Shown here: positions 23,985 to 48,314 of the stretch, one piece after another
Position numbering within the stretch: the first letter of the stretch is position 1
Layout: every line of letters starts with the position of its first letter
Source of the DNA: a virus
IMG/VR virus record: IMGVR_UViG_3300022680_000058
Coordinates: 1-64,000 of that record
Length of the DNA: 64,000 nt
Reading direction: 5' to 3' (one strand)
Translations under genes and position numbers: made by a program
Notes under the pieces: model-generated
Database searches by the model: none
What the model was told of the DNA's origin: nothing
What the model saw: only the letters and a program-made list of their open reading frames with translations

Positions 23985-26900
23985 TCACATCTGCTCCGCA
24001 CCACCAGGAGTGGTTGGACGAGCCGCCGGTCGGCGCCTTTGTGAGCGTCGCCCCATGCCAGCTCTCACTGAATCAGCCAACTGACGTCGAGCTTCCGTGC
24101 CAAACGTGCTGATCTCGATTGCTCTCGCCAGTCGCTCGACTTCTCGCGTCCTCTCCCTTTCCACAGTCGCCTCTCGACGTGAGGCAGTGCGCCTTGTCCT
24201 TCTCACCGTCTCTTCTTCAGTTGGAACAAGCGGCCTCGCCACCTGTGCCCTTCGTGAAGTGACAGGTGCCGCAACACTCACAGCAGCAGAACGACGCCAC
24301 TCCTCACGAGCCGCCTCGAACTCCTGCATTGCTGCCTGCTGACGGGCCTGTGACGCCGCTTCCTCTGCCTCTCGTTGAGCTCGATTCCTTCGCGCCTCTT
24401 CCTCAGCCCTGGTGACCATCGGGCGAATTCGAGAAATCTCACTTTGCAACGCCTCTCTCGGTGAAGACAAGGCGCCCCTGACGAGGTCCCCAAGGAACGG
24501 AACATTGTTGGCCAACGTCTGGATTGAGTCGAAGATTCGATGGAAGATTTCGAGCACTGTGAGCTTGAGCCGCATGAACGTTGTGTTCACAGCATCTGCC
24601 ATCGTCCGAAGAGTTCCACCAACACGGACAAAAGGATGGACCAAGTATCTTTCGACACTGGCACCAACAAGCCGGAAACCTGTCCTGAGCACACCGAGTG
24701 TCGCATTCCAGGTATCTCTCAAGAAGTTGAAGATTCTCGTCGCCTCCCTGATCCTGTCAGTGATGTGGTCTCGAATGACATTGAACACTCGGCGAGCAAC
24801 ACTGAAAACCCTCCCAAGGATAGCCGACCAAACAGTGAACAATGCCTCAAATACAGGTCGAATAACAGAGCGCCAAACAGTCTGGACATGACGCCCAATA
24901 GCGTTGAACACTGGCCGGAACACACGAGTCCAAAGGAACCTGACAACACCCATGAACGTCTGGAACCCCTCAATCAGAGACGCCGTACTCTCTGACAGAT
25001 ACGGATAGACCCCATGAGCCACATCCCACAGCGTTCGGAGAGCTCCAACAACCCATCTGATAGAGTCAGCAAGGACCCTCACGCCCTCGACGACGAGTGG
25101 CATTGCCGTCCTGTGGAGCCACTGAACCATCGGCATGACATAGTCGAGGACTCTCCTCATCATATCGCCGAAACTTTGGACGTTACCCTCTGCTCCCTCG
25201 AAAGCCTCTCCCACACCTCCAACATCAATCCGGAACCCGAAGATGTCTTCAAGCAACGGAAGAAGAGTGTCATCCCAGAGCTCACCAAGGACACCACCAA
25301 TCTCCCGGAACGTCGCCATCCACTCATCCCAAAGCGGAGTGACATAGTCCAGCCAATGCATGAAGGTGTCTCGGATCTCGACGCCCCATGTCCTCAGAAG
25401 CCCTACTACACCATCGAGATAGGCATTGACCGTATCTTCGCCTATGACATGCTCCAGAAGCATTCTGACAAGTCCGATGCCAGGTAGCGATGAAATCGCC
25501 TCAACAATGCCACGGAGAATTTGACCCGATCGGAAATACTCAACAATCGATTCGATGTTGAACATGTCCATCAAGAAGTCAAAGATGCCACCAGTGATGT
25601 CAGTCCCTGTCATCCCTGACAAGATTCTCGGAATCCCGAACAGCAATCCATTCACAATCGAGCTGAACAGGGTCCTGAAGCCATTGACGATACCTTCCGT
25701 CCTAAAGCTTGAGATGATGTCAGGGAGATCGAAGAGAACTCCGATGATCGCACCGATGTACGGGATGCGCCTCAAGACCGTTCTGAGAGCTGTACCAGTG
25801 AGCCCTCGACCACCAATCATGAATCTGCCAAGCGACGAGAATACACGACGGAAAGCATTGATGATGCTCCCCCGAAGAGGGGTCAGCATAGCGGCACCAA
25901 AGACACCACCAATCGCAACACCAGCCGCCGCCCCGGCTCGCTGAACCTGACCACGAACATCCGGAGGCTCCATGACCCATTCGACGATACGATTCCACAT
26001 GCCGCGAATGAAGCCACCCACGATCCGAGTCACCCCATCAAACAGAGCTCTGAAACCCTCAGCAATGGAGCGAGCTCCTTCTGTCATCTGTGGGCTGCTT
26101 TCGAGGTCGCCCAGGGCGCCGAACGCTCCGAGGATTCCGTCTACCAGGTCTTGGCCCATCTGGTCCCAATCGATGGACTTCGAGAAGTTCTCAACACTTC
26201 TCCCGAAGTTCTCGAACATCTGAGTCCCACGCCTCATGATCGGGCCGAGACGATCCCAATACCTGATGAGGAGATAGATCCCACCAGCGAACAATGTCAA
26301 AGGATTGAACGCGAGACGAAGAAGGCGCCCAATCTGTGGCAGCCTGATCCCCATAGCTGACAGACCGATCATGAATGGACCCATCTGACCAGCAACTTGG
26401 AACAACCCTTCACCAACACCATCGAGCAGCGGGAGAAACTCTCCAATGCGCCTCGAAAGCGTTGGGAACGCCTCTCCAAGCTCATCCTGCAATGCCACAG
26501 TCAGTCCCATGGCGCCGCCTCGACGGAGAGCAATCATTGCCCTTGTCGTCGCCCCGAGAGGGCCTCTGTTGGCTGCAAAGTTGTCAATGATCCCCGTCAG
26601 CCGTTGGAACGCCTCCGTTTGCCTCCTGATGACGTTCCGCTCGAAGTTCGGGTAATGCCTCCTGGCCATCCTGTCGAGGCCTGCTCGGAACCTCTCCTCG
26701 ACGAGCTCCATCTGCTCAGCGAATGTCCTCGTTGACCCACCAGCCCCATGAGCCATCCTAGCGAACGCACCTTCAGCATTCCCAGCGTCCCCCATAGCAG
26801 CCTGTAACGCCGCCTGAGACGCTTCTCCACCCTGGACAAGGAACATGAAGGCTGGTCCCATCTGTTCAAGCACAGAACGGAGCCTGGCAGCCGCTGGACT

Positions 26901-27905
26901 GTTCCTGTCCATGTTGTTGAACATATCAGCGATGGTCGCACCAAACCTTGCCGGGTCCTGCATAATGGCATCGAAGGACATTTCAACATTGCCGGTCGCC
27001 CTGGCTATCTCAGCAGCAAGCTCCGGGAACTCCCCACCGAGACCAACCAATAGCCCTTCCATCTCACGACGTGTACCAGCAAGTTGATTGAAGACCTCAA
27101 CGGCACCTTGGACCCCCTCCTGGAAACTCCCTCCGAGCCGCCTCTGCTGAGCAAGGCCAAGCCTGGTGATTGACTCGATCGCCACATCAACATTGTCGGA
27201 TATCGCTGGGAATCGAGACGCCGCTTGGTCAACAGCCTGAAGAATCTCAGGCATCGCACGAGCAGCATCCGCCCCGACCCCAAACTGCTCACCAAGAGCT
27301 GTCACCGTATCAAGTACACGACGAGCTCCATCCGCCCCGAGGTCGTACCCCTGAGCAAGACTCGTCATGACATCACCAAGCTGTTCTCCTGTCAGGATTC
27401 CAGCTTGAATTGAACCAGCAACATCCCTCATGGAGAGACCGAACTCGTCAATACTCCTTCCGGTCCTGGCAACGGTTGTCGCGTAAGCGAGCATATCGTC
27501 GCCACCGACTCCAAGAGTGAATGACAAGCTACTGATCTGACCTCGAACAGTATCGACCTCTGCTCGATACTCTCCAAGGCCAGCAGTAGCCGCCCTGTAC
27601 TCCTGAGCGAACTGAGCCCCATGAGATTCGAGGCTCGTCGATGATATTTCGTTGGACAAGGCACCGGCGCGCTCTGCCAGGCCTTCAAGAGCGTTACCAA
27701 CACGAGAGAGCTGCGACAGGTTCAGAGCGTCAATAAAATTCCCGAGACGTTGGACACCAATGGACTCTCGACCGATGCTTTCGGACGACGAAGCCATGCG
27801 ATCCATGCTGTCGCTGATTTCCTCAGTCGTCCGAGTCGCGCCGTCGTCTTTTGCTCCAAAGAGAAATCCGAGCCCGAGAGTCCTTGAGATCCCACCTGCC
27901 ATCAC
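23985..27905 (-). CDS. tail tape measure protein
   Basis: 1306 aa, helical and A/G/R-rich with amphipathic W/F repeats; lies between the chaperone and the LysM gene. Confidence 0.85.
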   Translation of the reverse strand: MMAGGISRTLGLGFLFGAKDDGATRTTEEISDSMDRMASSSESIGRESIGVQRLGNFIDALNLSQLSRVGNALEGLAERAGALSNEISSTSLESHGAQFAQEYRAATAGLGEYRAEVDTVRGQISSLSFTLGVGGDDMLAYATTVARTGRSIDEFGLSMRDVAGSIQAGILTGEQLGDVMTSLAQGYDLGADGARRVLDTVTALGEQFGVGADAARAMPEILQAVDQAASRFPAISDNVDVAIESITRLGLAQQRRLGGSFQEGVQGAVEVFNQLAGTRREMEGLLVGLGGEFPELAAEIARATGNVEMSFDAIMQDPARFGATIADMFNNMDRNSPAAARLRSVLEQMGPAFMFLVQGGEASQAALQAAMGDAGNAEGAFARMAHGAGGSTRTFAEQMELVEERFRAGLDRMARRHYPNFERNVIRRQTEAFQRLTGIIDNFAANRGPLGATTRAMIALRRGGAMGLTVALQDELGEAFPTLSRRIGEFLPLLDGVGEGLFQVAGQMGPFMIGLSAMGIRLPQIGRLLRLAFNPLTLFAGGIYLLIRYWDRLGPIMRRGTQMFENFGRSVENFSKSIDWDQMGQDLVDGILGAFGALGDLESSPQMTEGARSIAEGFRALFDGVTRIVGGFIRGMWNRIVEWVMEPPDVRGQVQRAGAAAGVAIGGVFGAAMLTPLRGSIINAFRRVFSSLGRFMIGGRGLTGTALRTVLRRIPYIGAIIGVLFDLPDIISSFRTEGIVNGFRTLFSSIVNGLLFGIPRILSGMTGTDITGGIFDFLMDMFNIESIVEYFRSGQILRGIVEAISSLPGIGLVRMLLEHVIGEDTVNAYLDGVVGLLRTWGVEIRDTFMHWLDYVTPLWDEWMATFREIGGVLGELWDDTLLPLLEDIFGFRIDVGGVGEAFEGAEGNVQSFGDMMRRVLDYVMPMVQWLHRTAMPLVVEGVRVLADSIRWVVGALRTLWDVAHGVYPYLSESTASLIEGFQTFMGVVRFLWTRVFRPVFNAIGRHVQTVWRSVIRPVFEALFTVWSAILGRVFSVARRVFNVIRDHITDRIREATRIFNFLRDTWNATLGVLRTGFRLVGASVERYLVHPFVRVGGTLRTMADAVNTTFMRLKLTVLEIFHRIFDSIQTLANNVPFLGDLVRGALSSPREALQSEISRIRPMVTRAEEEARRNRAQREAEEAASQARQQAAMQEFEAAREEWRRSAAVSVAAPVTSRRAQVARPLVPTEEETVRRTRRTASRREATVERERTREVERLARAIEISTFGTEARRQLADSVRAGMGRRSQRRRPAARPTTPGGAEQM

Positions 27906-28031: not shown

Positions 28032-29027
28032 CTAGGAAGAAGAAATCCGCTTCGAGCGCCGCGAGGTTGCCGTAGGGAAAAAGAATTGCTCCTGGCTGAT
28101 ATCGAGCTTGGCGATGAACTCACGCCCACAATGAGAGCAGTCGATGTCGACGTCCATCTCGATCCCAGGCTCATGCTTCTCGAACTCTCCCCTCAGGTGG
28201 TCCCTGTCTGCCGTTGTGAGACCCTTCACCTCGTTGAGCCAGCGATTGGCATCACTCGAAAGCTTGATCTTCGCCTTCTTCCCGCTCGTCAAGAAGTCCT
28301 TGTACTCCAGATCGATACTCTCCCCATCCCATCCTCGAAGCCTGGTCAAGATCGAGTAGCTCAAAGCACTCGATTCTGCACCGACACCGGCAGAGCTGAT
28401 CCCATGCATGATGCGGTCTTCCCTTCCCGTCATCACAGCCCACGAGACTTCGTGTCCACTATCGGGGAGCTCTGTCGAATGAATCATCACTGATGGATCT
28501 TCCGGCTCGAATAGTTCGAGGTCGAGCAGGTCCACCTTGTAGTACCCGATCTTCCCACACGTATTCGACGCGGGACAGCGCATCTCCATCTCGTACTTGC
28601 TGCCATGTGTCTTCCAATGGCTCGTGACTCTCAGAGCGATCAAGAGATGTGTCCGGCTTCCCGACGACATCGATCGGACAGCTCGAAGAATCTCCCCCTT
28701 GTCGGTGATTGACCCGAGAGACTTGACACAATTCCCCATGATCTGGTCCATCCGTTGGACCATCGGGACAGATCGATTCCCGAGAAGGTCTTCCTCATGG
28801 CCTGACATCGACCGAAGAGAGACCTCCTTGTGGAGCTCACCTTCAGCATCGACGTACCCACCGACCAGAGTGAAGATCCCAGCCTCTGGCTTCGGGTCCG
28901 TCACACGATCATAGCCCCCATCGTCCGGACCCTCGACAGCGACGCCGCCAGCCTTCTTCCCTCTCTCGATTGCTTCCTGGAGATTCTTGGACTTGGCTCC
29001 TCGCTCATTGAGCTCCTGTTCACCCAT
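28032..29027 (-). CDS. tail assembly chaperone (gp26-like, Cys pairs); -1 frameshift extension to 27916
   Basis: EEDLL, CPASNTC, CSHC and terminal FFFP motifs; directly upstream of the tape measure gene. Confidence 0.75.
   Translation of the reverse strand: MGEQELNERGAKSKNLQEAIERGKKAGGVAVEGPDDGGYDRVTDPKPEAGIFTLVGGYVDAEGELHKEVSLRSMSGHEEDLLGNRSVPMVQRMDQIMGNCVKSLGSITDKGEILRAVRSMSSGSRTHLLIALRVTSHWKTHGSKYEMEMRCPASNTCGKIGYYKVDLLDLELFEPEDPSVMIHSTELPDSGHEVSWAVMTGREDRIMHGISSAGVGAESSALSYSILTRLRGWDGESIDLEYKDFLTSGKKAKIKLSSDANRWLNEVKGLTTADRDHLRGEFEKHEPGIEMDVDIDCSHCGREFIAKLDISQEQFFFPTATSRRSKRISSS
28074..28080 (-). other. programmed -1 ribosomal frameshift site T-TTC-CCT
   Basis: X-XXY-YYZ heptamer in frame; the -1 frame is open to TGA at 27916 and encodes YGNLAALEADFFFLAEHLNQGYQDVMAMPVGRRKRLCEEFENIL... 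Confidence 0.75.
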
Positions 29028-29855: not shown

Positions 29856-29898
29856 ACAGACAGTCTATCAAAAAAAATATGAGCTCTCCACACAGGGT

Positions 29899-30690
29899 TC
29901 AGTATTCGGAATCCCACTCATATTCAGCTTCAATGTCAATCGGAACAAAAAAACTGAACGTCCATGGGGCCTTTGATTTGAGAGATATTTTTCCAATATC
30001 TGCCTTCATCTCCAAGTCAACATCGATAACGATCTCACCGCTCGTTTCACGAGAAAATTCCTCATCCGTCTCTTCATTTGCCGCGTCAACAGCCTTGCGG
30101 GCAAGAGCCCTGAGAGCATCATCGTCAAACCCGTACTCTTTCTCCCAGGTCTTTACCATGCTGGAGAGCTCTTCATCACCAAAATGATCAACGACTTTTC
30201 TATCAGTCGCGACCTTTTGAGCAATCGACGGGCCAACAAACCCAGAAAGTTGTCTTTTGATGTTTGCGCTGAGTTTTGAGCTTGAGAGCTTGTTCACCCC
30301 GGAGTATGACAGCTCTCTTGGATATGACGCTTTAGCGAAAAACCATTCAGGGTCAGGATCGTCAGGCCAATCGAAGTGCTCGTAGGAACTTTCCAGCTCG
30401 TCCTCACGAACGACCTTGAACTTTGGGTTTTTGTTCTTGAGCGTCTTGTCGATCAAAACACCAACACTCGATTGGAGACCAGAGAGCACCTCTGAAATCG
30501 CATCTTCGAGCTTACCCCGATCCACATTATCAGCCCCATGCCGGATCAAGGCGTCAGAAATGACATCGACAGAAGATACTTTTTTCTTCCTGGAAGCTTT
30601 CCGTCTCGGCTTGCGAGCCTTCGGAGCTCTAACATTATAAGAAGTCCGTCCGGAAGCAATCGCCTCTAACAACTCTTGTGAACCCTTCAT
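29899..30690 (-). CDS. tagged cargo-family protein (MKGSQELLE|AIASGRTSYNVRAP)
   Basis: GGAGGAG RBS before ATG at 30690; shares the post-Glu motif with genes at 46.5-52.2 kb. Confidence 0.7.
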   Translation of the reverse strand: MKGSQELLEAIASGRTSYNVRAPKARKPRRKASRKKKVSSVDVISDALIRHGADNVDRGKLEDAISEVLSGLQSSVGVLIDKTLKNKNPKFKVVREDELESSYEHFDWPDDPDPEWFFAKASYPRELSYSGVNKLSSSKLSANIKRQLSGFVGPSIAQKVATDRKVVDHFGDEELSSMVKTWEKEYGFDDDALRALARKAVDAANEETDEEFSRETSGEIVIDVDLEMKADIGKISLKSKAPWTFSFFVPIDIEAEYEWDSEY

Positions 30691-30740
30691 TTCTGGCTCC
30701 TCCAGCATTCATTGTATCAAACAGCAATGAATCCTTCACA

Positions 30741-30769
30741 AACATAAGTTGTATGATTTAGTTTGTCAA
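30741..30769 (-). promoter_or_regulatory. sigma70-type promoter
   Basis: TTGACA-N17-TATGTT upstream of 29899-30690. Confidence 0.7.
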
Positions 30770-30778
30770 TGTCATCGC

Positions 30779-30821
30779 AAAAAAATAGCCCCCTCCAGCT
30801 TTTCAGCCAAAGGGGGCTATT
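30779..30821 (-). terminator. rho-independent terminator
   Basis: AATAGCCCCCT..AGGGGGCTATT stem followed by a T-run on the minus strand. Confidence 0.8.
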
Positions 30822-31228
30822 CGAGTTCCCCTTACCCCTGGGCTTTATGTCGAAGTACCCAGCGGCTTTTGTCTTTTTGAGATCAGGTGCCCGCCCACCA
30901 TCACATCAGTTCTGCCCAACTTCTCAGAACCATGCCACCCCTATCGCACTGCCTGACGCGTTGCCTGGTGGCTCCCTTGGAATCGAGTTTCACTCGACAG
31001 AACAATATCCCCCTGTCCGGGGTTGCTATCGATGACTTGGGGTTATCTTGTTCACCCCTATCAGGCCACCGATGCTTTGTCCGTCCATCAGAGCGAGACT
31101 TCGTCTTATCCCAACCCCTGATGAACGTGCCGATGACTGACCAAGCCACCAGCAGCATCCTGAAAATCATTTCAACCCTTCACCGCCTTCTCCTGTGTTT
31201 TCGCCTATCTACCGGCTTTCATCCACAC
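30779..31228 (-). ncRNA. candidate large structured non-coding RNA (~450 nt), family unrecognised
   Basis: Own promoter and terminator, at least 8 nested helices with minus-strand G-U pairs, no convincing ORF. Confidence 0.6.
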
Positions 31229-31233
31229 CCAAC

Positions 31234-31261
31234 AGTCTAACTCTCCAGCGTTTTCTGTCAA
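31234..31261 (-). promoter_or_regulatory. sigma70-type promoter for the ncRNA candidate
   Basis: TTGACA-N16-TAGACT. Confidence 0.65.
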
Positions 31262-31284
31262 CACTGACAGACCGTTTTTATCGT

Positions 31285-31473
31285 CTAATTCATCCACCTC
31301 ATATCGAAGTGTTCATTCCATCCACGTCGCCACGCAACATGCTCTGGAGTGCCCTCTGGATACGGATTGTCTGGACTCCCAGCAAGGACACCATCACACT
31401 CGACGGATGTGTTGTAGCCTTCGTTGAAGGCGTTCCTTTGTGAACCCGTTTTTAGGTACCTATGCAGACTCAT
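31285..31473 (-). CDS. Rmf/CrpP-fold-like small protein
   Basis: AFNEGY..NPY..AWRRGW pattern as in ribosome-modulation-factor-like proteins. Confidence 0.55.
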   Translation of the reverse strand: MSLHRYLKTGSQRNAFNEGYNTSVECDGVLAGSPDNPYPEGTPEHVAWRRGWNEHFDMRWMN

Positions 31474-31918
31474 CGTTGATCCTCATCCCGTTCGATGACA
31501 GCTCATGGATCATCTTCGTGGTGTTCATGTCACACTTTGGGCACCTGAGTTCGACGGCTGCCCATCCCTCAGAGCCAAACTCGATGAGAGAGAAATCGAC
31601 TGCATGGACACCGGTCACCCCACAATTCCCACACTTCGACTTTACCTCCCTGAGATCCTGCTCGAATCCTGGAACATCCGGAGTTGGCGGAAGGTCCGGA
31701 CGAGGAACGCTCCAAATCCAAGCTCCCCAAGCATCTGAGAGGTGACACTTTCCATCAATCTCGTACACCACAACTGTAAGGCCACCTTGGCGCCCGTACT
31801 CCTCTCCTGTCGCCCGGATGTCATAGACCCCAGGCTCAGACGGGACACCCTTAGTCCACTGACCTTGCTGATAGCGCTTGAGTTGCTTCTCGAAGTCATA
31901 CCGAGTTTTCTGGTCCAT
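31460..31918 (-). CDS. hypothetical protein with C-terminal CxxC pairs
   Basis: WTKGVPSEPGVY..W; CGNC..CPKC. Confidence 0.65.
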   Translation of the reverse strand: MDQKTRYDFEKQLKRYQQGQWTKGVPSEPGVYDIRATGEEYGRQGGLTVVVYEIDGKCHLSDAWGAWIWSVPRPDLPPTPDVPGFEQDLREVKSKCGNCGVTGVHAVDFSLIEFGSEGWAAVELRCPKCDMNTTKMIHELSSNGMRINDESA

Positions 31919-31920
31919 GA

Positions 31921-32304
31921 CTACACCTCGAATTTGTTGTTTTTCCCAGCGGACAGCTTCAGGACCGGATCATTGATGTCGTCATCCCCTCCAAAGAGCG
32001 GGACAACCCTGACGTCAGATTCCGGATTCACCTCCAAAAGCTCTGCCTTCATCTTCCTGGCATCGTCGAACTCATCAAAGTTCTGGAACTGACGACCACC
32101 CTCAGTGATCTGGACCACCGAATACCCCGTGGGGTCCATATCCGGAAGAGCTCTTTGTTCAACCCCAAGTTTTTTGACCTCAATCGCCGCCAACGCAGTA
32201 TCCCGCATAGTTCTATATTTTAGCCAATCCGTGAACGAGAAGCTTCCAATCGCCAGAGCAGCCACACCACCGAGCACCAAAAACATCGCTGTAATCGGGT
32301 CCAT
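31921..32304 (-). CDS. hypothetical membrane-anchored protein
   Basis: GAGGAG RBS; N-terminal TM segment. Confidence 0.7.
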   Translation of the reverse strand: MDPITAMFLVLGGVAALAIGSFSFTDWLKYRTMRDTALAAIEVKKLGVEQRALPDMDPTGYSVVQITEGGRQFQNFDEFDDARKMKAELLEVNPESDVRVVPLFGGDDDINDPVLKLSAGKNNKFEV

Positions 32305-32314
32305 CTTCTTCTCC

Positions 32315-32602
32315 TCACCAGCCCATAGAGAGCCGTCTCATGTCGTCTTCTCGGTCCTCTTCTCGGCGGATCTCCCGAATCTCATCCTCGATATCGTCAT
32401 CGGCATATCCGCAGAGGTATTCATCATTCGCCGCCTCTTCTGCCTCTTCGTCGAGCTCTTCGAGATACTCCGTGTACTCATCTCGACAAAGCGCCCTCCC
32501 TCCTTGTCTCGCACGGGAACGAAAAGCCTTCGCCCGCCGCCTGGAATCGCCCTTTGAGAGAGACGCAACCTCGGTCCAACTTCCTGCCCCCAACGGTTTC
32601 AT
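32315..32602 (-). CDS. hypothetical protein, basic N-half and acidic C-half
   Basis: GGAGG RBS; ATGA overlap with the upstream gene. Confidence 0.6.
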   Translation of the reverse strand: MKPLGAGSWTEVASLSKGDSRRRAKAFRSRARQGGRALCRDEYTEYLEELDEEAEEAANDEYLCGYADDDIEDEIREIRREEDREDDMRRLSMGW

Positions 32603-33114
32603 GACTTACCTCCATTGACGAGCTCAGAAAACTCGTCGCTGTTGTCACTCCCTGTGATGGCTCGCCAAAGGTCGAAGGCTTCGTGAGCGTTGCAGTTCAC
32701 ACTCGCATAGAGCGCTTGAGCCATACAGACCTTGGCGGTCAAGGCCGGGTCATCCTGGTCTTTCTTGACACCAGACCACTCATCAACGAGAACCTGTTGT
32801 TCTTCATCAGAGAGGATGAACCAGTCCTCCTGATACTTCTCATCAGTGTTGACGAGGAGCGCCTTGTCAGCGACATTCCCCAAGAAGTCCAACACCACCG
32901 ACTCCTTTGTCTCAGGAGATAGTTGATCGACGAGGAGGAGCTCCTTCTCCGGACCCCAGAGACAGACGATGTCCAGAGCACGCTGAACGCCCGTCCGAAC
33001 ACCAGCCCAATATGATTCAGGATTCCACTCAAGCTCCGAACGACTGATACGCTCCCTCTCAGCCAGAACCTCAGACCTCAAGACACTAATCTTCTTCACC
33101 AACCCACTCAGCAT
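32599..33114 (-). CDS. hypothetical protein
   Basis: Probable start ATG at 33114, coupled to the upstream stop. Confidence 0.6.
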   Translation of the reverse strand: MLSGLVKKISVLRSEVLAERERISRSELEWNPESYWAGVRTGVQRALDIVCLWGPEKELLLVDQLSPETKESVVLDFLGNVADKALLVNTDEKYQEDWFILSDEEQQVLVDEWSGVKKDQDDPALTAKVCMAQALYASVNCNAHEAFDLWRAITGSDNSDEFSELVNGGKS

Positions 33115-33296
33115 GACGACCCTTCTTTCTGTCTTTTCAGCTCGAATTCGAGCATAGCTTTCACATCGACGAGCCCACTGATTCGACCCTCGTAGTAACG
33201 ACCCCACCGACTATCCGGAGAGTAGTGGCCACCGAGGCGCCTGGACTCTTCGATTGCCCCATCGATTTGCTTCAAGAGCTCATCCATGACGACCAA
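33108..33296 (-). CDS. small hypothetical protein
   Basis: Tiled in the operon; YYEGRISGL helix typical of small phage proteins. Confidence 0.55.
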   Translation of the reverse strand: MVVMDELLKQIDGAIEESRRLGGHYSPDSRWGRYYEGRISGLVDVKAMLEFELKRQKEGSSC

Positions 33297-33299
33297 CCC

Positions 33300-33491
33300 C
33301 TAATCTTCCCATGTGGTGTAGTAGACGCTTTTCCCATCCCGAAGACGACGCTCAGCATCTTTGGCGTGGAGCAAGTCACCACCCCACGTCTCGTAAACCA
33401 CAACATCGCCAACAATCGGCGTCTTTGTCGGGAGCCCGTACCACTTGATCATGCCTTTGTTTGCTGGCCTGCGCTCATGGGTCCGTCTCAT
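33300..33491 (-). CDS. small hypothetical protein (first gene of operon)
   Basis: GAGGGAGG RBS before ATG at 33491, directly after a promoter. Confidence 0.55.
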   Translation of the reverse strand: MRRTHERRPANKGMIKWYGLPTKTPIVGDVVVYETWGGDLLHAKDAERRLRDGKSVYYTTWED

Positions 33492-33516
33492 GGGGTCCCT
33501 CCCTCTCACAAACCTC

Positions 33517-33545
33517 AATCTAGTACCATGATTTGCGCTTGTCAA
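33517..33545 (-). promoter_or_regulatory. sigma70-type promoter
   Basis: TTGACA-N17-TAGATT. Confidence 0.65.
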
Positions 33546-33625
33546 CCGGACCAAAAGAAAAAAGCAAAAAACCTCACAGCGCAGATCGCCACCAGCTCTT
33601 TTGTCAAAAAAGAGTCCAGCATGCA

Positions 33626-33653
33626 TTGACAGACGTAAATCACATTATAAGAT
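33626..33653 (+). promoter_or_regulatory. divergent sigma70-type promoter
   Basis: TTGACA-N16-TAAGAT upstream of the only + strand gene. Confidence 0.6.
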
Positions 33654-33676
33654 TGTCAGTGAAAGGGAAACGAACC

Positions 33677-33877
33677 ATGACCAACCCGAACGAAACAGTC
33701 ACCGCTCTCCTTCGTCAGGCCCGCAAGACCTCGGGCGCATCGCCTGAAGAGGCGCACACCGCCGCCCTGGCAGCCTTGAACATGGCCCGGAAGCACAAGC
33801 TTCACGGAGCCATCATCGCCCGATGTCACAACGAACTCTTCAAAGCCAACTCTCGGCGACATCAAGCCGCCGCCTAA
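33677..33877 (+). CDS. DUF2786-like small helical protein
   Basis: GAAAGGGA RBS; TVTALLRQA..SPEEAHTAALAALNMARKH resembles the DUF2786 helical hairpin. Confidence 0.6.
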   Translation: MTNPNETVTALLRQARKTSGASPEEAHTAALAALNMARKHKLHGAIIARCHNELFKANSRRHQAAA

Positions 33878-33882
33878 CCTGC

Positions 33883-34257
33883 CTACGAATAATCCACCAA
33901 AGAAGCTTCGACGACGAAGTTTGCCTGATTGACGACGGGATACCTCACAGGTGGGGTCGCACTGGGATACTCGACTGAGATCCCGTAGTAGTAGCATCCC
34001 TTGGCGAGCACTGACTGGTCTGATGGGATTGTAATCGTCGCCTGACCGTTCTGGGCGTCCGTGATCTCAATTCCATTGTCGGGGCTGGATAGTTGAATCA
34101 GCGCATCTGAGCTCGAATCAGCCTTCACTGTGAAGTACATGACGGCGTCGACAAGAGACGCGTTGCGCCCCTCACAAGTCTTCACAGTGACCTTGATCAC
34201 CTTCGTCTGGCCACTGACGATCTTCACTGAGTTGAGTAGGTTGGGAGGTGTCGCCAT
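33883..34257 (-). CDS. BppU-like Ig-fold virion protein
   Basis: MYFTVK..GIEITDAQNGQATITIP..G.YYYGI pattern. Confidence 0.6.
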   Translation of the reverse strand: MATPPNLLNSVKIVSGQTKVIKVTVKTCEGRNASLVDAVMYFTVKADSSSDALIQLSSPDNGIEITDAQNGQATITIPSDQSVLAKGCYYYGISVEYPSATPPVRYPVVNQANFVVEASLVDYS

Positions 34258-37974: not shown

Positions 37975-38610
37975 TCAAAACCCTCTGACTCCAGCCGCAG
38001 AAAGGGACGCAGCCGTCAAAGAGAATGTTCTAGCCAACACTGGGGACAACGTAGCGACCGTCATCTCCACGACATCTTCAGGTTGTACTTCAAGCTCCTG
38101 AATCGAAACGTCGCTTGAATTGGCGTCGAAGTCACCACCAGCCTTGTATCTCGTTGGGAGACACGCTTGTAGAAACCACGCACGAGCCGGAAGCCTCGTC
38201 ACCAAACTTGTGATCGCCAGTTCATCTGGAAGGCTCCCAGAAGTGTCGCCATCCAGTGCAGCCGCCAACGGTCTGAACCCCATGAAATGGACCAGGACAA
38301 TGTTTCTCCTCAGGGGTTGCTTCCCCTTCACGGCATTGTTCATCCAGATCCAAAAATCGCTGTCATAGAACCGAGACCCACGAGAAAGGACAACAGGCGC
38401 CACATCCGCCGACTTCACTGCCCTCTTCTTATACTCCCAATTCCCCGGTTGGACCTCTCTGAGCTCCAAAGACACCTCTGGAGCACTGCATGCCGAGAAT
38501 CCAAGGGCAGGATCAAAAATCGAGAACAATGGATTTCCAGAGAAGCCGCTGGCATCGAATGCCCAGAACGGATAGAGCTGGAGCATGTCGAGGTATCTGA
38601 GCCGTGGCAA
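37975..38610 (-). CDS. tail tube protein paralog 2 (gp19-like)
   Basis: GFSACSAPE..LSRG..FWIW..P.RYKAG.DFDANSSDVSIQELEV; TTG start. Confidence 0.8.
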   Translation of the reverse strand: MPRLRYLDMLQLYPFWAFDASGFSGNPLFSIFDPALGFSACSAPEVSLELREVQPGNWEYKKRAVKSADVAPVVLSRGSRFYDSDFWIWMNNAVKGKQPLRRNIVLVHFMGFRPLAAALDGDTSGSLPDELAITSLVTRLPARAWFLQACLPTRYKAGGDFDANSSDVSIQELEVQPEDVVEMTVATLSPVLARTFSLTAASLSAAGVRGF

Positions 38611-40772: not shown

Positions 40773-43403
40773 CTATTCCGAAGAGCTGAAGATCTGCTCG
40801 AACCGGAACAGGAGAAATTCTCCAGGCTTGTTCACCGCGACATACACGTCACAGATGACCAGTCCATCCTCCTCGACGTTGGGAGGATTGTTGGTCTCAT
40901 CACAGATGACGGAAAACGCCTCCTGAGGCGTGTCACCCTTGAACAGCCCCTGCCCAAAGAGCGTCAACATGAAACTCTCGACGGACAGTTGAATGGTCTT
41001 CCTGAGGGACGAACCCACGTTCTCGAAAACGAACCCATGGGTACTGTTGAAGACCGAGACCTTCAGGAAGTTGAACAGCCTTCGAGCATGAATGAACCTG
41101 AAGTCCGATGGTGGATTCTCCAGAGTCCTTGCGCCCCACACACACCGCCCTGTCTGGGCAGTGTCCATGAGAGAGTTGACCTGCTTCGGGTGGAGAATAT
41201 CGAGCTCATCGAACTCCATGGTTCGTTCGAGACCGATGCTGAAATTCAGCTTGCCCTCGGTGACGCCAGCCGGAGCTCGACCCACAGATTTCGTGTTGTC
41301 CGTCCTAGCATACACACCAGCGATGTGCCCACCAGGAGGGATATTCACAGGAAGGTCCGTCACAGGGTCAGTGATCGTGATCCAAGGGTAGTACAGCGCG
41401 CCGTAACTGCTGTTCGCCCCGAGGTCATTGATCCTGTAACTCTGAGCCTGTTGAGGCGTGAGTCCCTCCGGAGTCGCCAGGATGATGAACCATTTCTCGT
41501 TCCGCTCGGCCTCTGTGAGCTGATCGAGGGACATCGTGACGTTTCCAGCCGCGTCAGGAATCGTGACGTTCTGGAGCTCGTTCGTCGGGAGCAAAGCGTA
41601 CATCCCTTCACGATCAGTGAGAAGGGTCGGGTCGGTGAGCTCGTTCCGAGTCACAGAGCCGGGAGACGCACCATCGGTACCACCGGCGGCATCCGTCTCA
41701 ACGAGACTGAGATCTGGTTGCTTGTAAAAGCTCGCCGTCGCGATCGACCCAGGAACGAGAACGGCAGGTCCGGCGCCGTGAGACGTCTCGGGCTCCTCGA
41801 TCTCCTGACCAGCGACGAGTCTGAACGCGAAGTGTCCGGTCGTGTAGTTGATGACGTTGAGATTCGACGGGGCTGTCCCATCGACGTCACCAATCAGATT
41901 CCCGTCACCGTCATCAGTGATGGTCCTCGTATTGCCACCAACATCCGTGTAGGTGATACTGACGGACCCTTGCTGAACAGGTGCCTCCAGCGGAAGCGTC
42001 CGAACACCAACCGGAATCACAGCCGACGTCAGACCACCACCACCAGCAGTGCCGTCAGTGGAGCCGTAATCGAGAGTCGGTGTCGCAACCGGGATACCGC
42101 CGTTTCCGGCAGCACACTGGACCGACCTAGCGAAACCACTCAGACGAACGGGGGCGACATCCGCATTCGACGGCTCGGTGAGCTCGATGTAGTCCGACCC
42201 GACACCGGCATTGTTGAGCACACTTCCAACGTACCGAGCATCAGAAGTGTCAGTGAAGCTCAAATCCTCGAAAATCTCTTCGAGGCTGCCGTCAACGGTC
42301 ACCAAGACATCAAACCGAGAGTACGACGCAGTGCTCCTGGTGAAGTAGTCATCGTCCCCACGGATGTCGACGTCCACACCGTTGCCCCAGGTACCTCCAG
42401 AGATGACCGAGTAGTCCCAGATCACCTGCGAATAGCAGACTTCGATCGGGCACTTGTTGTACGGAGCAGGAGACCCAGCATTGATGATGAAACTCGCCTG
42501 CCCTGTCGTGTAGTCGATGGTGTCCGACACGCCCGTGAGGACAGTGTCAGTAGACGCCAATGTTCCGGCGCCGTCATCAAAGATGGTGACCAAGTCTCCA
42601 GCCGGGGTGAAGTCCGCCGTCACCGCAGCCGCTGCATCGGGAACACTCGCCGTCGTTGTCTCGAAAGACAAGTTGAAGACGCCTGTCGTGTAATCGATGT
42701 ACCCACGAGCGATGTTGCTCGTATCGTAGAGAATACCGATTCCCTCTTGAGCTGGAGCCGGGGCATGAACCGCGTCATCACCATAGGTCACAGCGCCAGC
42801 GCTGACCAGCGTATTGATCGTCACTGACCCAGGAACGATCTTCGCGTCGTTCGCAACGACAATCCGGCTGATCATTGCATCGTTCGACGCCGCAGAAACA
42901 CCAGCCACACCATCAGGGACGGGAACAGGAGTCAGGGCCTGAGCCACAACCGGAGTCCCTGCTTCATAGTAGGTGATAGAGACACCACCAGGAGCAGGTG
43001 TGACTTGTTGGATCGGGAGTCCAGAAATGGCTGTGAGAGGAGTACCACCCGAAGAAAAGTCCTGCGTGGTACCATCACCCACACCAATCTGCTCCTCACA
43101 GACTGGATTCGTGAGCTCTCCGACAGCAGTCGCCGCGTCGGACGGGATCACACGAACGACATACGCTCGACGACCGCCATTCGCGAAAAACGCATAGACG
43201 TGTGTTGGAACCTGGCTCAGTGCGGTGAACGTCCCGAACTCTTCCGAGAAAGAGGTGTAGTTCGTCTTGAGCGTGGCTACGTTTGTCGGACCCTTGGTCG
43301 TGAAGCCGACGATGCCCATGTTCGACGTGGAAACGCCTTGAATCGGGGTCAACCCACTCGCGCGTTCCTCGACATACACGCCGGGATGGAGGTATTCTGC
43401 CAT
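40773..43403 (-). CDS. tail sheath protein
   Basis: YLHPGVYVEE, FFANGG, ALYYPWI, PPGGHIAGVYARTD, VWGARTL, KPGEF motifs. Confidence 0.95.
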   Translation of the reverse strand: MAEYLHPGVYVEERASGLTPIQGVSTSNMGIVGFTTKGPTNVATLKTNYTSFSEEFGTFTALSQVPTHVYAFFANGGRRAYVVRVIPSDAATAVGELTNPVCEEQIGVGDGTTQDFSSGGTPLTAISGLPIQQVTPAPGGVSITYYEAGTPVVAQALTPVPVPDGVAGVSAASNDAMISRIVVANDAKIVPGSVTINTLVSAGAVTYGDDAVHAPAPAQEGIGILYDTSNIARGYIDYTTGVFNLSFETTTASVPDAAAAVTADFTPAGDLVTIFDDGAGTLASTDTVLTGVSDTIDYTTGQASFIINAGSPAPYNKCPIEVCYSQVIWDYSVISGGTWGNGVDVDIRGDDDYFTRSTASYSRFDVLVTVDGSLEEIFEDLSFTDTSDARYVGSVLNNAGVGSDYIELTEPSNADVAPVRLSGFARSVQCAAGNGGIPVATPTLDYGSTDGTAGGGGLTSAVIPVGVRTLPLEAPVQQGSVSITYTDVGGNTRTITDDGDGNLIGDVDGTAPSNLNVINYTTGHFAFRLVAGQEIEEPETSHGAGPAVLVPGSIATASFYKQPDLSLVETDAAGGTDGASPGSVTRNELTDPTLLTDREGMYALLPTNELQNVTIPDAAGNVTMSLDQLTEAERNEKWFIILATPEGLTPQQAQSYRINDLGANSSYGALYYPWITITDPVTDLPVNIPPGGHIAGVYARTDNTKSVGRAPAGVTEGKLNFSIGLERTMEFDELDILHPKQVNSLMDTAQTGRCVWGARTLENPPSDFRFIHARRLFNFLKVSVFNSTHGFVFENVGSSLRKTIQLSVESFMLTLFGQGLFKGDTPQEAFSVICDETNNPPNVEEDGLVICDVYVAVNKPGEFLLFRFEQIFSSSE

Positions 43404-47173: not shown

Positions 47174-47730
47174 ATCCTGTCGTGTTCCGTCTTTCGGAAC
47201 GGCACGAACTTCGACCTAAGCTTGACCTCGATCTTGAACTGAACGAAGGTTGATGTCGTGAAGACATTTCCATCCCTGGTAGCCTTCACTACATCCCACT
47301 GACTGAACTGAGACGAGTTTCCGAATGGAACCTCTGACCAAAATTCGATAATGTCGCCCTTCTTCGGATACGGGGCGCTCCTGTCCTCGAACTCTTTTCT
47401 TGAAATCCAGATGACAGCCTCAGACTCCGTTCTCGCACCCTGCTCACTTGCTTCCACAGTGACATTGTCCGACTGTGGATAGTCAATCGCCGCATAGAGC
47501 TCGAAAGGCCCGTTGTACGACCAATCCTTCCCCTCATGAGAGGGCTCTCCATAAACAGGATCTCGATTCTTAGCTCTACGAAGCTGATAGAGCTTCACAG
47601 GCTCTCCAGCGAGCCTGGCAGGCTCTGTAGCAACGGAGTCCCACAACGCTTGTTCCGTGCCACAATCATCACAATCGCTGCCCGGAAAGATGCGTCTCGT
47701 GGGCTCGCAGTCGTCGCTACAGAACCCCAT
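47170..47730 (-). CDS. neck / head closure protein (gp14-like)
   Basis: GEPVKLY..DPVYGE..PKKGDII motifs. Confidence 0.7.
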   Translation of the reverse strand: MGFCSDDCEPTRRIFPGSDCDDCGTEQALWDSVATEPARLAGEPVKLYQLRRAKNRDPVYGEPSHEGKDWSYNGPFELYAAIDYPQSDNVTVEASEQGARTESEAVIWISRKEFEDRSAPYPKKGDIIEFWSEVPFGNSSQFSQWDVVKATRDGNVFTTSTFVQFKIEVKLRSKFVPFRKTEHDRI

Positions 47731-48314
47731 CACCACCACCCCTGATATTTCGCCGGTGGCCTCTTCTGAGCATGTCCAGTAACAGACCTGGCGATATTTC
47801 CAAGCTTCTTGGCATAGTTCGTGATTTTGCTGGCGAGCGTCTTGATCCCTCCCTCATCATCAATCGAGACATTCTTCCCGATCGTCATGAGCTCTGGGTA
47901 CTCATCAACCCACTGGTCCACAACCATCTGAGCATCTTTCTTCCGGTCAAAGAATGTCCCCTCATACCCGCCAAAAGCCATGCTCATCCCAGTTGTGGCA
48001 TGAGAAATAACCCACGAAGTTCCTTTATGGCTCTTGTGAACAGCCCAGACACCTTTGACATACGCCTTGATTGGCTGCTTCGTGTGCCCCTCATCATGGA
48101 ACATGTTCGGGACACGGATCTTGATGGTTTTCCCCGACCATCCAGTCGGCCCTTTCTTCCCCTTCTTCGGCGACTTCATCCCAAAAGTCCCTGGAGCACG
48201 AACATCATAGCTCGTTACACCAGAGGCTATTGCCTCAGCCATTACGGCGATCTCATCTTCTTGAAATGTTGAAATCGCCGTCACGAGAACAGTGTTGACC
48301 GTGTGAACATCCAT
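47730..48314 (-). CDS. leader-tagged protein (MDVHTVNTVLVTAISTFQE)
   Basis: Shared leader plus AE|AIASGVTSYDVRAP. Confidence 0.75.
   Translation of the reverse strand: MDVHTVNTVLVTAISTFQEDEIAVMAEAIASGVTSYDVRAPGTFGMKSPKKGKKGPTGWSGKTIKIRVPNMFHDEGHTKQPIKAYVKGVWAVHKSHKGTSWVISHATTGMSMAFGGYEGTFFDRKKDAQMVVDQWVDEYPELMTIGKNVSIDDEGGIKTLASKITNYAKKLGNIARSVTGHAQKRPPAKYQGWW

Follow-up and report, generated by a model that had tools for sequence, protein, structure and literature searches.

The interval at positions 30,779–31,261 of the DNA analysed here has the sequence signals of a self-contained promoter-to-terminator transcription unit of ~450 nt on the minus strand, and it appears to be an accessory insertion in a variable island between two conserved tail genes. 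An earlier reading, made from the sequence alone, had proposed that it encodes a new large structured phage RNA, ~450 nt long and built of nested helices. What stands of that proposal is an independent unit that belongs to no known RNA family and has one well-folded domain of ~190 nt; the 3′ domain and the closing helix are unsupported, the reading frame inside the unit is not a trivial one and the layout is that of a moron. The interpretation that we favour, and that we hold to be evenly balanced between right and wrong, is that of a moron-type unit whose strongly folded mRNA encodes a small membrane protein.

The phage and its tail module

The DNA comes from IMG/VR virus record IMGVR_UViG_3300022680_000058, which is 148 kb long; 'the window' refers throughout to the first 64 kb (64,000 nucleotides) of this record. 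The phage is a myovirus, in which a T4-type major head protein, a prohead protease and a portal were identified. Its head and tail genes are close-packed and lie almost all on the minus strand. In a simple frame map, open frames cover 92% of the genome and gaps of more than 330 nt are very rare. The candidate unit is situated within the tail region, as was first described, with the sheath and tube genes on one side and the hub-like and tape-measure genes on the other (Table 1). Annotation of the neighbouring genes agrees with the earlier statement that they include neither a nuclease nor a reverse transcriptase.

Table 1. Positions in the window of the predicted features of the candidate unit and of the tail genes around it.
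Feature	Positions	Strand	Details
Sigma-70-type promoter	31234–31261	minus	Motif scan; predicted from sequence signal
Perfect 7-bp inverted repeat, 4-bp spacer	31254–31271		TCTGTCA-N4-TGACAGA; overlaps −35 hexamer; dG −8.5
Purine-rich leader, ~57–63 nt	31171–31227	minus	AGGAG at 31194–31190; AAGGG 5 nt before ATG
89-codon ATG frame	30901–31170	minus	Hydrophobic residues 2–19, then very basic tail (13 Arg, 6 Lys)
Well-folded RNA domain	30963–31154	minus	H2 31127–31082, H3 31073–31028, H5 30997–30983
3′ part: end of frame and 80-nt trailer	30822–30964	minus	z −0.03
Intrinsic terminator	30779–30821	minus	dG −30.5 kcal/mol; rank 3 in 200-nt window scan
Promoter-like site for downstream 269-aa gene	30741–30769	minus	Motif scan
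Tape measure gene	23985–27905		Wedge genes further on
T4_baseplate/hub-like gene	28032–29027		
Tube gene	37975–38610		Phage tail module
Sheath gene	40773–43403		Phage tail module

An island of accessory genes in related phages

Searches with the neighbouring 269-aa and 152-aa proteins, and a first search with the hub-like gene, recovered no loci. Relatives at 38–64% identity came from an exhaustive HMMER search with the hub-like protein; through these and homologues of a conserved 124-aa gene (33883–34257), about 20 loci were fetched. The closest of those first found (L002, 64%) ends 1.3 kb short of the slot that the unit would occupy. In locus L028, the 124-aa gene is followed by a 247-aa-like gene and then by the hub and tape measure genes, with nothing between; this gene order is the basal one. 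Different inserts are carried between the 124-aa and 247-aa-like genes in L013, L018, L021 and L030; several lineages have 1–5 kb of small genes in the island, and the inserts vary from phage to phage. L021 keeps homologues of the 95-aa, 62-aa and 269-aa genes of the window, and between the last two of these, which is the slot of the candidate unit, it has an unrelated 119-aa gene. No counterpart of the unit is present in L013, L018–L021, L028 or L030. A comparison with the gene that takes its place in relatives, of which the unit might be a remnant, showed no similarity.

Some features of the island deserve mention in their own right. Positions 29856–33882 of the window form a hot spot for accessory small genes, mostly unrelated and 60–130 aa in product length. 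In L021 (10381–11864), three adjoining genes begin with the same MGLAxQL(Q/E)EA leader, and the 269-aa gene of the window (29899–30708) has a similar QELLEAI stretch near its start. Low-complexity repeat proteins are encoded at L018:11667–12026 and L019:11782–12416, with (GNGDGY)n-like repeats and a long (AM)n frame.

Searches for relatives of the unit

A covariance search with the 4227 models of Rfam 15 gave no match at the gathering threshold, in keeping with the claim that the unit represents no known RNA family; at E ≤ 10 there were four chance-level matches, of 14–21 bits as against thresholds of 40–80. The claim that it holds no tRNA or tmRNA is confirmed by ARAGORN and Rfam. At the nucleotide level, no relative was found by blastn among 50,697 phage records or by a 20-mer scan of viral contigs, and no counterpart by nhmmer, blastn, tblastx or tblastn with the frame in any of the fetched loci. 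A covariance model (R1) of domain 1, the 5′ domain, matched nothing in 25 sources and seven whole related virus records, and the phage genome itself holds no second copy of the unit.

The 89-residue frame product is equally isolated. It has no homologue among 5.8 billion proteins and no match in Pfam (E ≤ 0.1), PHROGs or PADLOC; the Protein Data Bank sequences gave matches at E ≥ 0.3 only, and tblastn against phage records gave a single chance match (E 0.4). The ESM Atlas yielded no feature match, the Atlas model having a pLDDT of 0.41. By these comparisons the unit is a singleton, known from one genome only among the collections searched.

Transcription signals

The sequence-only reading described a minus-strand promoter, a strong terminator some 450 nt further on and, directly behind it, a promoter for the next gene, and all three signals are found. 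The first, TTGACA-16-TAGACT, was recovered by a motif scan. It belongs to a class (TTGACA-N15-18-TAnnnT) that has 25 sites in the 148-kb genome, mostly intergenic, compared with 2.2 ± 1.3 in dinucleotide shuffles, an 11-fold enrichment. Transcription from it would start near 31227. Many of the 25 promoter-like sites share the extended consensus TTGACA-(A/G)ACGCAAA(T/C)CATGG-N3-CTAGATT (for example window 33545–33517 and genome 67898, 142598 and 144121), which suggests that they form one promoter class. Several have no called gene start (frames of at least 60 codons) close behind them, and two divergent sites, at 33545 (minus) and 33626 (plus), stand inside the tail module.

The −35 hexamer is overlapped by a perfect inverted repeat that might serve as an operator. 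A genome-wide family of 18-bp palindromes at −35 was considered and rejected, the palindrome being unique in the genome. On the plus strand, a run of T follows the repeat, which gives a terminator-like site (31254–31281). On the minus strand, there is no U-tract after the 31271–31254 hairpin, so that the upstream island operon would have to end at 30779; the terminator there would thus probably serve that operon as well as the unit. This terminator has an 18-bp stem, a GAAA loop and seven U residues. It was not listed by the simple scan that recovered the promoters. The promoter-like site that follows it is TTGACA-17-TATGTT.

Within the leader, a three-codon GTG mini-frame (31183–31172) stops 2 nt upstream of the ATG. 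The Shine-Dalgarno duplex energy is −8.5 kcal/mol, as against a gene median of −5.4. Two properties of the leader are counted against coding: its Shine-Dalgarno motif is less canonical than those of the neighbouring genes, and its length of ~57–63 nt compares with 2–38 nt where a called gene start follows a promoter closely.

RNA folding

All of the helix coordinates in the sequence-only reading are exact in the sequence, and the strand asymmetry that it pointed out is real: the minus strand of the whole unit has z −5.03 against shuffles, the plus strand −1.45. Both the unit and its 5′ domain (z −4.36) fold better than shuffles, which are a lenient null, as 34 random same-length coding windows gave a mean z of −0.91 (sd 1.07, minimum −3.03). 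The unit minus its terminator has z −3.20 against shuffles, so that the value near −5 for the whole unit comes largely from the terminator, and the core window came to only z −1.5 when 400-nt windows were scanned by regression.

The value of −4.36 belongs to positions 30960–31157, where the multibranch model first proposed is both the minimum-energy and the centroid fold. Among 6336 windows of 200 nt, taken from both strands of the whole genome, the 5′ domain ranks 15th. Ten distinct loci fold more strongly, mostly within protein genes such as that for the tape measure, and the genome's own tmRNA is far from the top of the scan. Minus-strand stretches of the window at 27401–27680, 47561–47760 and 40561–40760 fold like the candidate or better (z −3.3 to −4.05); these fall within, or at an end of, the tape measure gene, a 189-aa gene and a 134-aa gene adjoining the sheath gene.

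Helices H2 (pair probability 0.95), H3 (0.93/0.97) and H5 (0.89) are robust in the full transcript. Two closures of the domain are predicted, one by helix H1 (31152–31143 with 30974–30965) and the other by a local hairpin at 31153–31129. H1, which had been put forward as the closing helix, has a probability of 0.01 in the full transcript and costs +3.5 kcal/mol to enforce; the hairpin that displaces it (31153–31144 with 31138–31129) has a probability of 0.86. H4 also has a pair probability of 0.01. The long-range GGCGGU/GCCGCU pairing suggested earlier, which joins leader and trailer, is supported with a probability of 0.63. The second domain of the original model, in the 3′ part of the unit, folds no better than chance: its UCAGG/CCUGA and GUGC/GCAC pairings have probabilities of ~0. 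Those of GGUUCUG/CAGAACU and CUGGGU/GCCCAG are 0.55 and 0.35. What these predictions describe is thus a series of very stable hairpins, real and strand-specific, that covers ~190 nt; an ornate architecture of 450 nt is not demonstrated.

Among the apical loops read from the predicted folds there is no GNRA tetraloop besides the GAAA of the terminator, nor did the unit show hallmarks of the GNRA-receptor type. An exact 10-nt repeat, GAUAGGGGUG, is present in both halves of the unit and is of doubtful meaning; the other DNA repeats in the unit are short and at chance level. As to antisense targets, the phage genome has no complementarity to the unit beyond 12–14 nt.

The 89-codon reading frame

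The frame starts at the first ATG past an in-frame stop. Its length is counted in favour of coding, since a frame of at least 89 codons occurs in dinucleotide shuffles of the transcript in 6% of cases with ATG and in 10.7% with any start. The first 19 residues have a mean Kyte-Doolittle hydropathy of 1.5, and such N-terminal hydrophobicity is equalled by 0.3% of shuffled frames and by 1.5% of the spurious frames that lie within long genes. The joint probability of a chance frame of such length with an N-terminal anchor is well under 1%. The region around the start is no less accessible than that of real genes (unpaired probability 0.46–0.47, as against a gene mean of 0.405). Two cysteines flank a predicted beta-hairpin in the basic tail, and AlphaFold gives a pLDDT of 54, with an N-terminal helix and the Cys-flanked hairpin, compared with 43 for an antisense 117-codon control. 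Among the island genes, that at 31921–32304 also encodes a small protein with a hydrophobic N-terminus, and it has a clear coding signal; the 89-codon frame was compared with it as a possible paralogue and this was rejected.

Although the frame scores best among the three sense frames, its coding score in a three-periodic Markov model is −0.055 to −0.09 per codon, whereas all other island genes have 0.11–0.24. Set against real gene pieces this is the 6th percentile, and against spurious frames the 86th; the two score distributions favour a spurious frame by ~4:1. The composition is likewise odd (Arg 14%, Trp 4.4%, Glu 2%), with G equally frequent at codon positions 2 and 1.

The relation between frame and fold was addressed by permuting synonymous codons, which keeps the protein and the codon counts. 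Against these permutations the domain has z −3.97 and the whole frame −3.71, and none of the 300 was as stable, whereas 40 control coding pieces gave −0.67 ± 1.06 (minimum −2.35). The value for the domain means that the hairpins are not a by-product of the amino-acid sequence, and hairpins more stable than the amino acids require indicate that RNA structure has probably been selected. Supposing that the frame is real, the order of its codons is one that favours pairing.

Translation-related genes and other RNAs of the phage

A tmRNA gene lies outside the window at 110476–110844 of the genome, on the minus strand (L025:6876–7244). It matches RF00023 over its full length with 118.8 bits, ARAGORN gives its tag peptide as ANTDSYPEMSLAA, and a terminator-like hairpin follows it. 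A spurious frame of 61 codons overlaps this tmRNA gene, and open frames inside RNA genes therefore do occur in this genome, a point that counts against our favoured reading. Directly upstream of the unit, a 62-aa gene (31285–31473, minus) matches the Pfam family RMF (ribosome modulation factor) with E 1.4e-5. The match, of 25.5 bits, is slightly below the cut-off of 27.9 and covers profile positions 11–51 of 53. Homologues of this gene are kept in L018–L021, and its product has no match among Protein Data Bank sequences.

The strongest-folded 200-nt window of the genome is intergenic, at ~102400–102640 on the minus strand (L024:18600–18840; z −4.75). In it, a TTGACA promoter-like site is combined with an imperfect hairpin some 110 nt long and a strong terminator. 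It contains no frame, matches no Rfam family and is a cleaner small-RNA candidate than the unit at 30779–31261. The tmRNA, the RMF-like gene and the 102.4-kb unit keep an RNA reading of our candidate alive without testing it.

Proposed function and comparison with morons

Where morons in tail operons encode small membrane proteins, these have the host envelope as their target, superinfection exclusion being one example. On the scheme that we favour, an accessory unit of this kind would have been inserted in the variable small-gene island of the tail module. The host sigma-70 RNA polymerase would start at the promoter of the unit and stop at its terminator. The transcript would most probably be an mRNA, in which a leader of ~60 nt precedes translation, from the ATG at 31170, of an orphan protein of 89 residues. 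The short hydrophobic N-terminus may anchor this protein in the inner membrane, and its very basic tail would, on the positive-inside rule, remain cytoplasmic; by analogy, it has a putative role on the host envelope, such as superinfection exclusion. The first two thirds of the coding region would form the unusually stable hairpin array, which might stabilize the transcript, slow its translation or have an RNA function of its own. A small-protein mRNA with selected structure is favoured because it accommodates the odds on the frame and its N-terminus, the 4:1 coding score and the strength of the hairpins.

Of the four sequence features that define morons, the unit shows three, namely a promoter, a terminator and extra DNA relative to its kin. 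The fourth is a deviant G+C content, and in this respect the unit differs from classic morons in matching its surroundings (53.2%, as against 53.5% for the genome). The first moron to be described was gene 15 of phage HK97, which is located between the tail chaperone and tape measure genes and encodes a small inner-membrane protein (PMC3594210). Like that gene, the unit is an insertion in the tail operon, upstream of the tape measure gene, that related phages lack; it brings a promoter and a terminator of its own, and its candidate product is a small membrane-anchored protein. It differs in that the mRNA is unusually structured, the protein is a predicted one and the phage may not be temperate. 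The frame product has no Pfam match at E ≤ 0.1 to the HK97 gp15/YebO family.

Alternative explanations

The principal alternative, which is close to what was first proposed, is a stand-alone non-coding RNA of ~400–450 nt with a functional 190-nt multi-hairpin domain and an accidental frame. We think it rather unlikely, although worth taking seriously. It draws on the folding of the domain (z −4.36, rank 15 of 6336, −3.97 against synonymous recodings), which is specific to the minus strand, on the long leader and on the poor coding statistics of the frame, with ~4:1 for a spurious one. The phage has both a tmRNA (118.8 bits) and the frameless promoter-hairpin-terminator unit at 102.4 kb, and its genuine tmRNA gene carries a 61-codon frame. 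Against this, the length of the frame and its N-terminal anchor would have to arise by chance (~0.06–0.11 times ~0.003–0.085), the second domain and closing helix are unsupported and, the terminator GAAA excepted, the apical loops lack a GNRA tetraloop. In addition, ten other loci, mostly within protein genes, fold equally well or better, and the domain covariance model matches nothing in seven whole related records or the fetched loci. The large RNAs GOLLD and ROOL (PMC5737381; PMC12286853) are comparable in that here, too, an RNA candidate of several hundred nucleotides is found in a phage with no adjacent partner protein; the unit is, however, much smaller, with one well-folded domain of ~190 nt, no family and a plausible reading frame.

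A wider form of the same idea, on which a structured phage RNA has an active hairpin array and is either purely non-coding or dual-function, seems to us tentative to the same degree. Such an RNA could join the RMF-like gene and the tmRNA as tools aimed at the host translation machinery. Dual-function RNAs, which are at once a regulator and a small-protein mRNA, are known in SgrS/SgrT and RNAIII/delta-haemolysin. These resemble the unit as structured transcripts of a few hundred nucleotides with their own promoter and terminator and a small frame. The differences are that the frame here fills 60% of the transcript and that the complementarity to the phage genome is limited to 12–14 nt.

That the interval has no dedicated product is improbable. 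It would on this view be a spacer from island turnover, carrying the upstream operon's terminator and promoters for neighbouring genes, with a frame and hairpins that are by-products of chance or decay. The island is indeed in rapid flux among relatives, the upstream hairpin without a U-tract means that an operon must end at 30779 in any case, about ten other loci fold as well and the coding score is ambiguous; yet the promoter directed into the interval is of a strongly enriched class, and the genome is 92% frame-covered, gaps of more than 330 nt being very rare. Structure, frame length and N-terminal anchor would all be coincidences, and there is no similarity to the genes that occupy the slot in relatives.

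In phage lambda, PR′-tR′ yields a short '6S' transcript unless an antiterminator acts. A terminated leader of this sort might gate the downstream tail genes, its RNA being a cis site for antitermination or modification of the polymerase. The two systems share a constitutive-type promoter, a short transcript (here a structured one) and a strong terminator ahead of a long same-strand run of late genes, and the 5′ arm of the terminator could face competition from a weak alternative pairing, AAGGGG/CCCCUU. This candidate antiterminator pairing is, however, trivial beside a terminator of −30.5 kcal/mol, a separate promoter comes directly after that terminator, and relatives have the same tail genes without such a unit; neither an antiterminator protein was identified nearby, nor a Q-like factor or qut-like site. 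Alternatively, the unit might be a type I toxin-like module resembling hok/sok, with a membrane-active peptide encoded on a folded, long-lived mRNA, 5′–3′ pairing and an antisense RNA. The hydrophobic N-terminus, the strongly folded mRNA and the pairing of leader GGCGGU with trailer GCCGCU (probability 0.63) would suit this, and the plus-strand terminator-like hairpin at 31254–31281 could end an antisense RNA. Type I toxins usually have fewer than 60 residues, though, and a product of 89 residues with a long hydrophilic tail is unlike them. The best plus-strand promoter is poor (CTGACC-19-GAAAAT, 8/12) and no credible antisense promoter was found, the start region is not sequestered (unpaired 0.46–0.47, gene mean 0.405) and the frame has no family match. 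The lambda-6S-like and hok-like readings both lack their defining parts, and both are very improbable.

Significance

The ordinary reading, a moron-type small membrane protein whose mRNA is stable by chance or by selection, fits the data at least as well as an RNA gene does, and the novelty of the locus is modest unless an RNA function is demonstrated. The locus is a well-delimited and cheap experimental target should the phage lineage be cultured. Were the RNA reading true, the very few large structured RNAs known from phages would be joined by a new class. In a phage that has a tmRNA and a weak match to a ribosome hibernation factor, such an RNA would be truly interesting with regard to the handling of host translation by phages.
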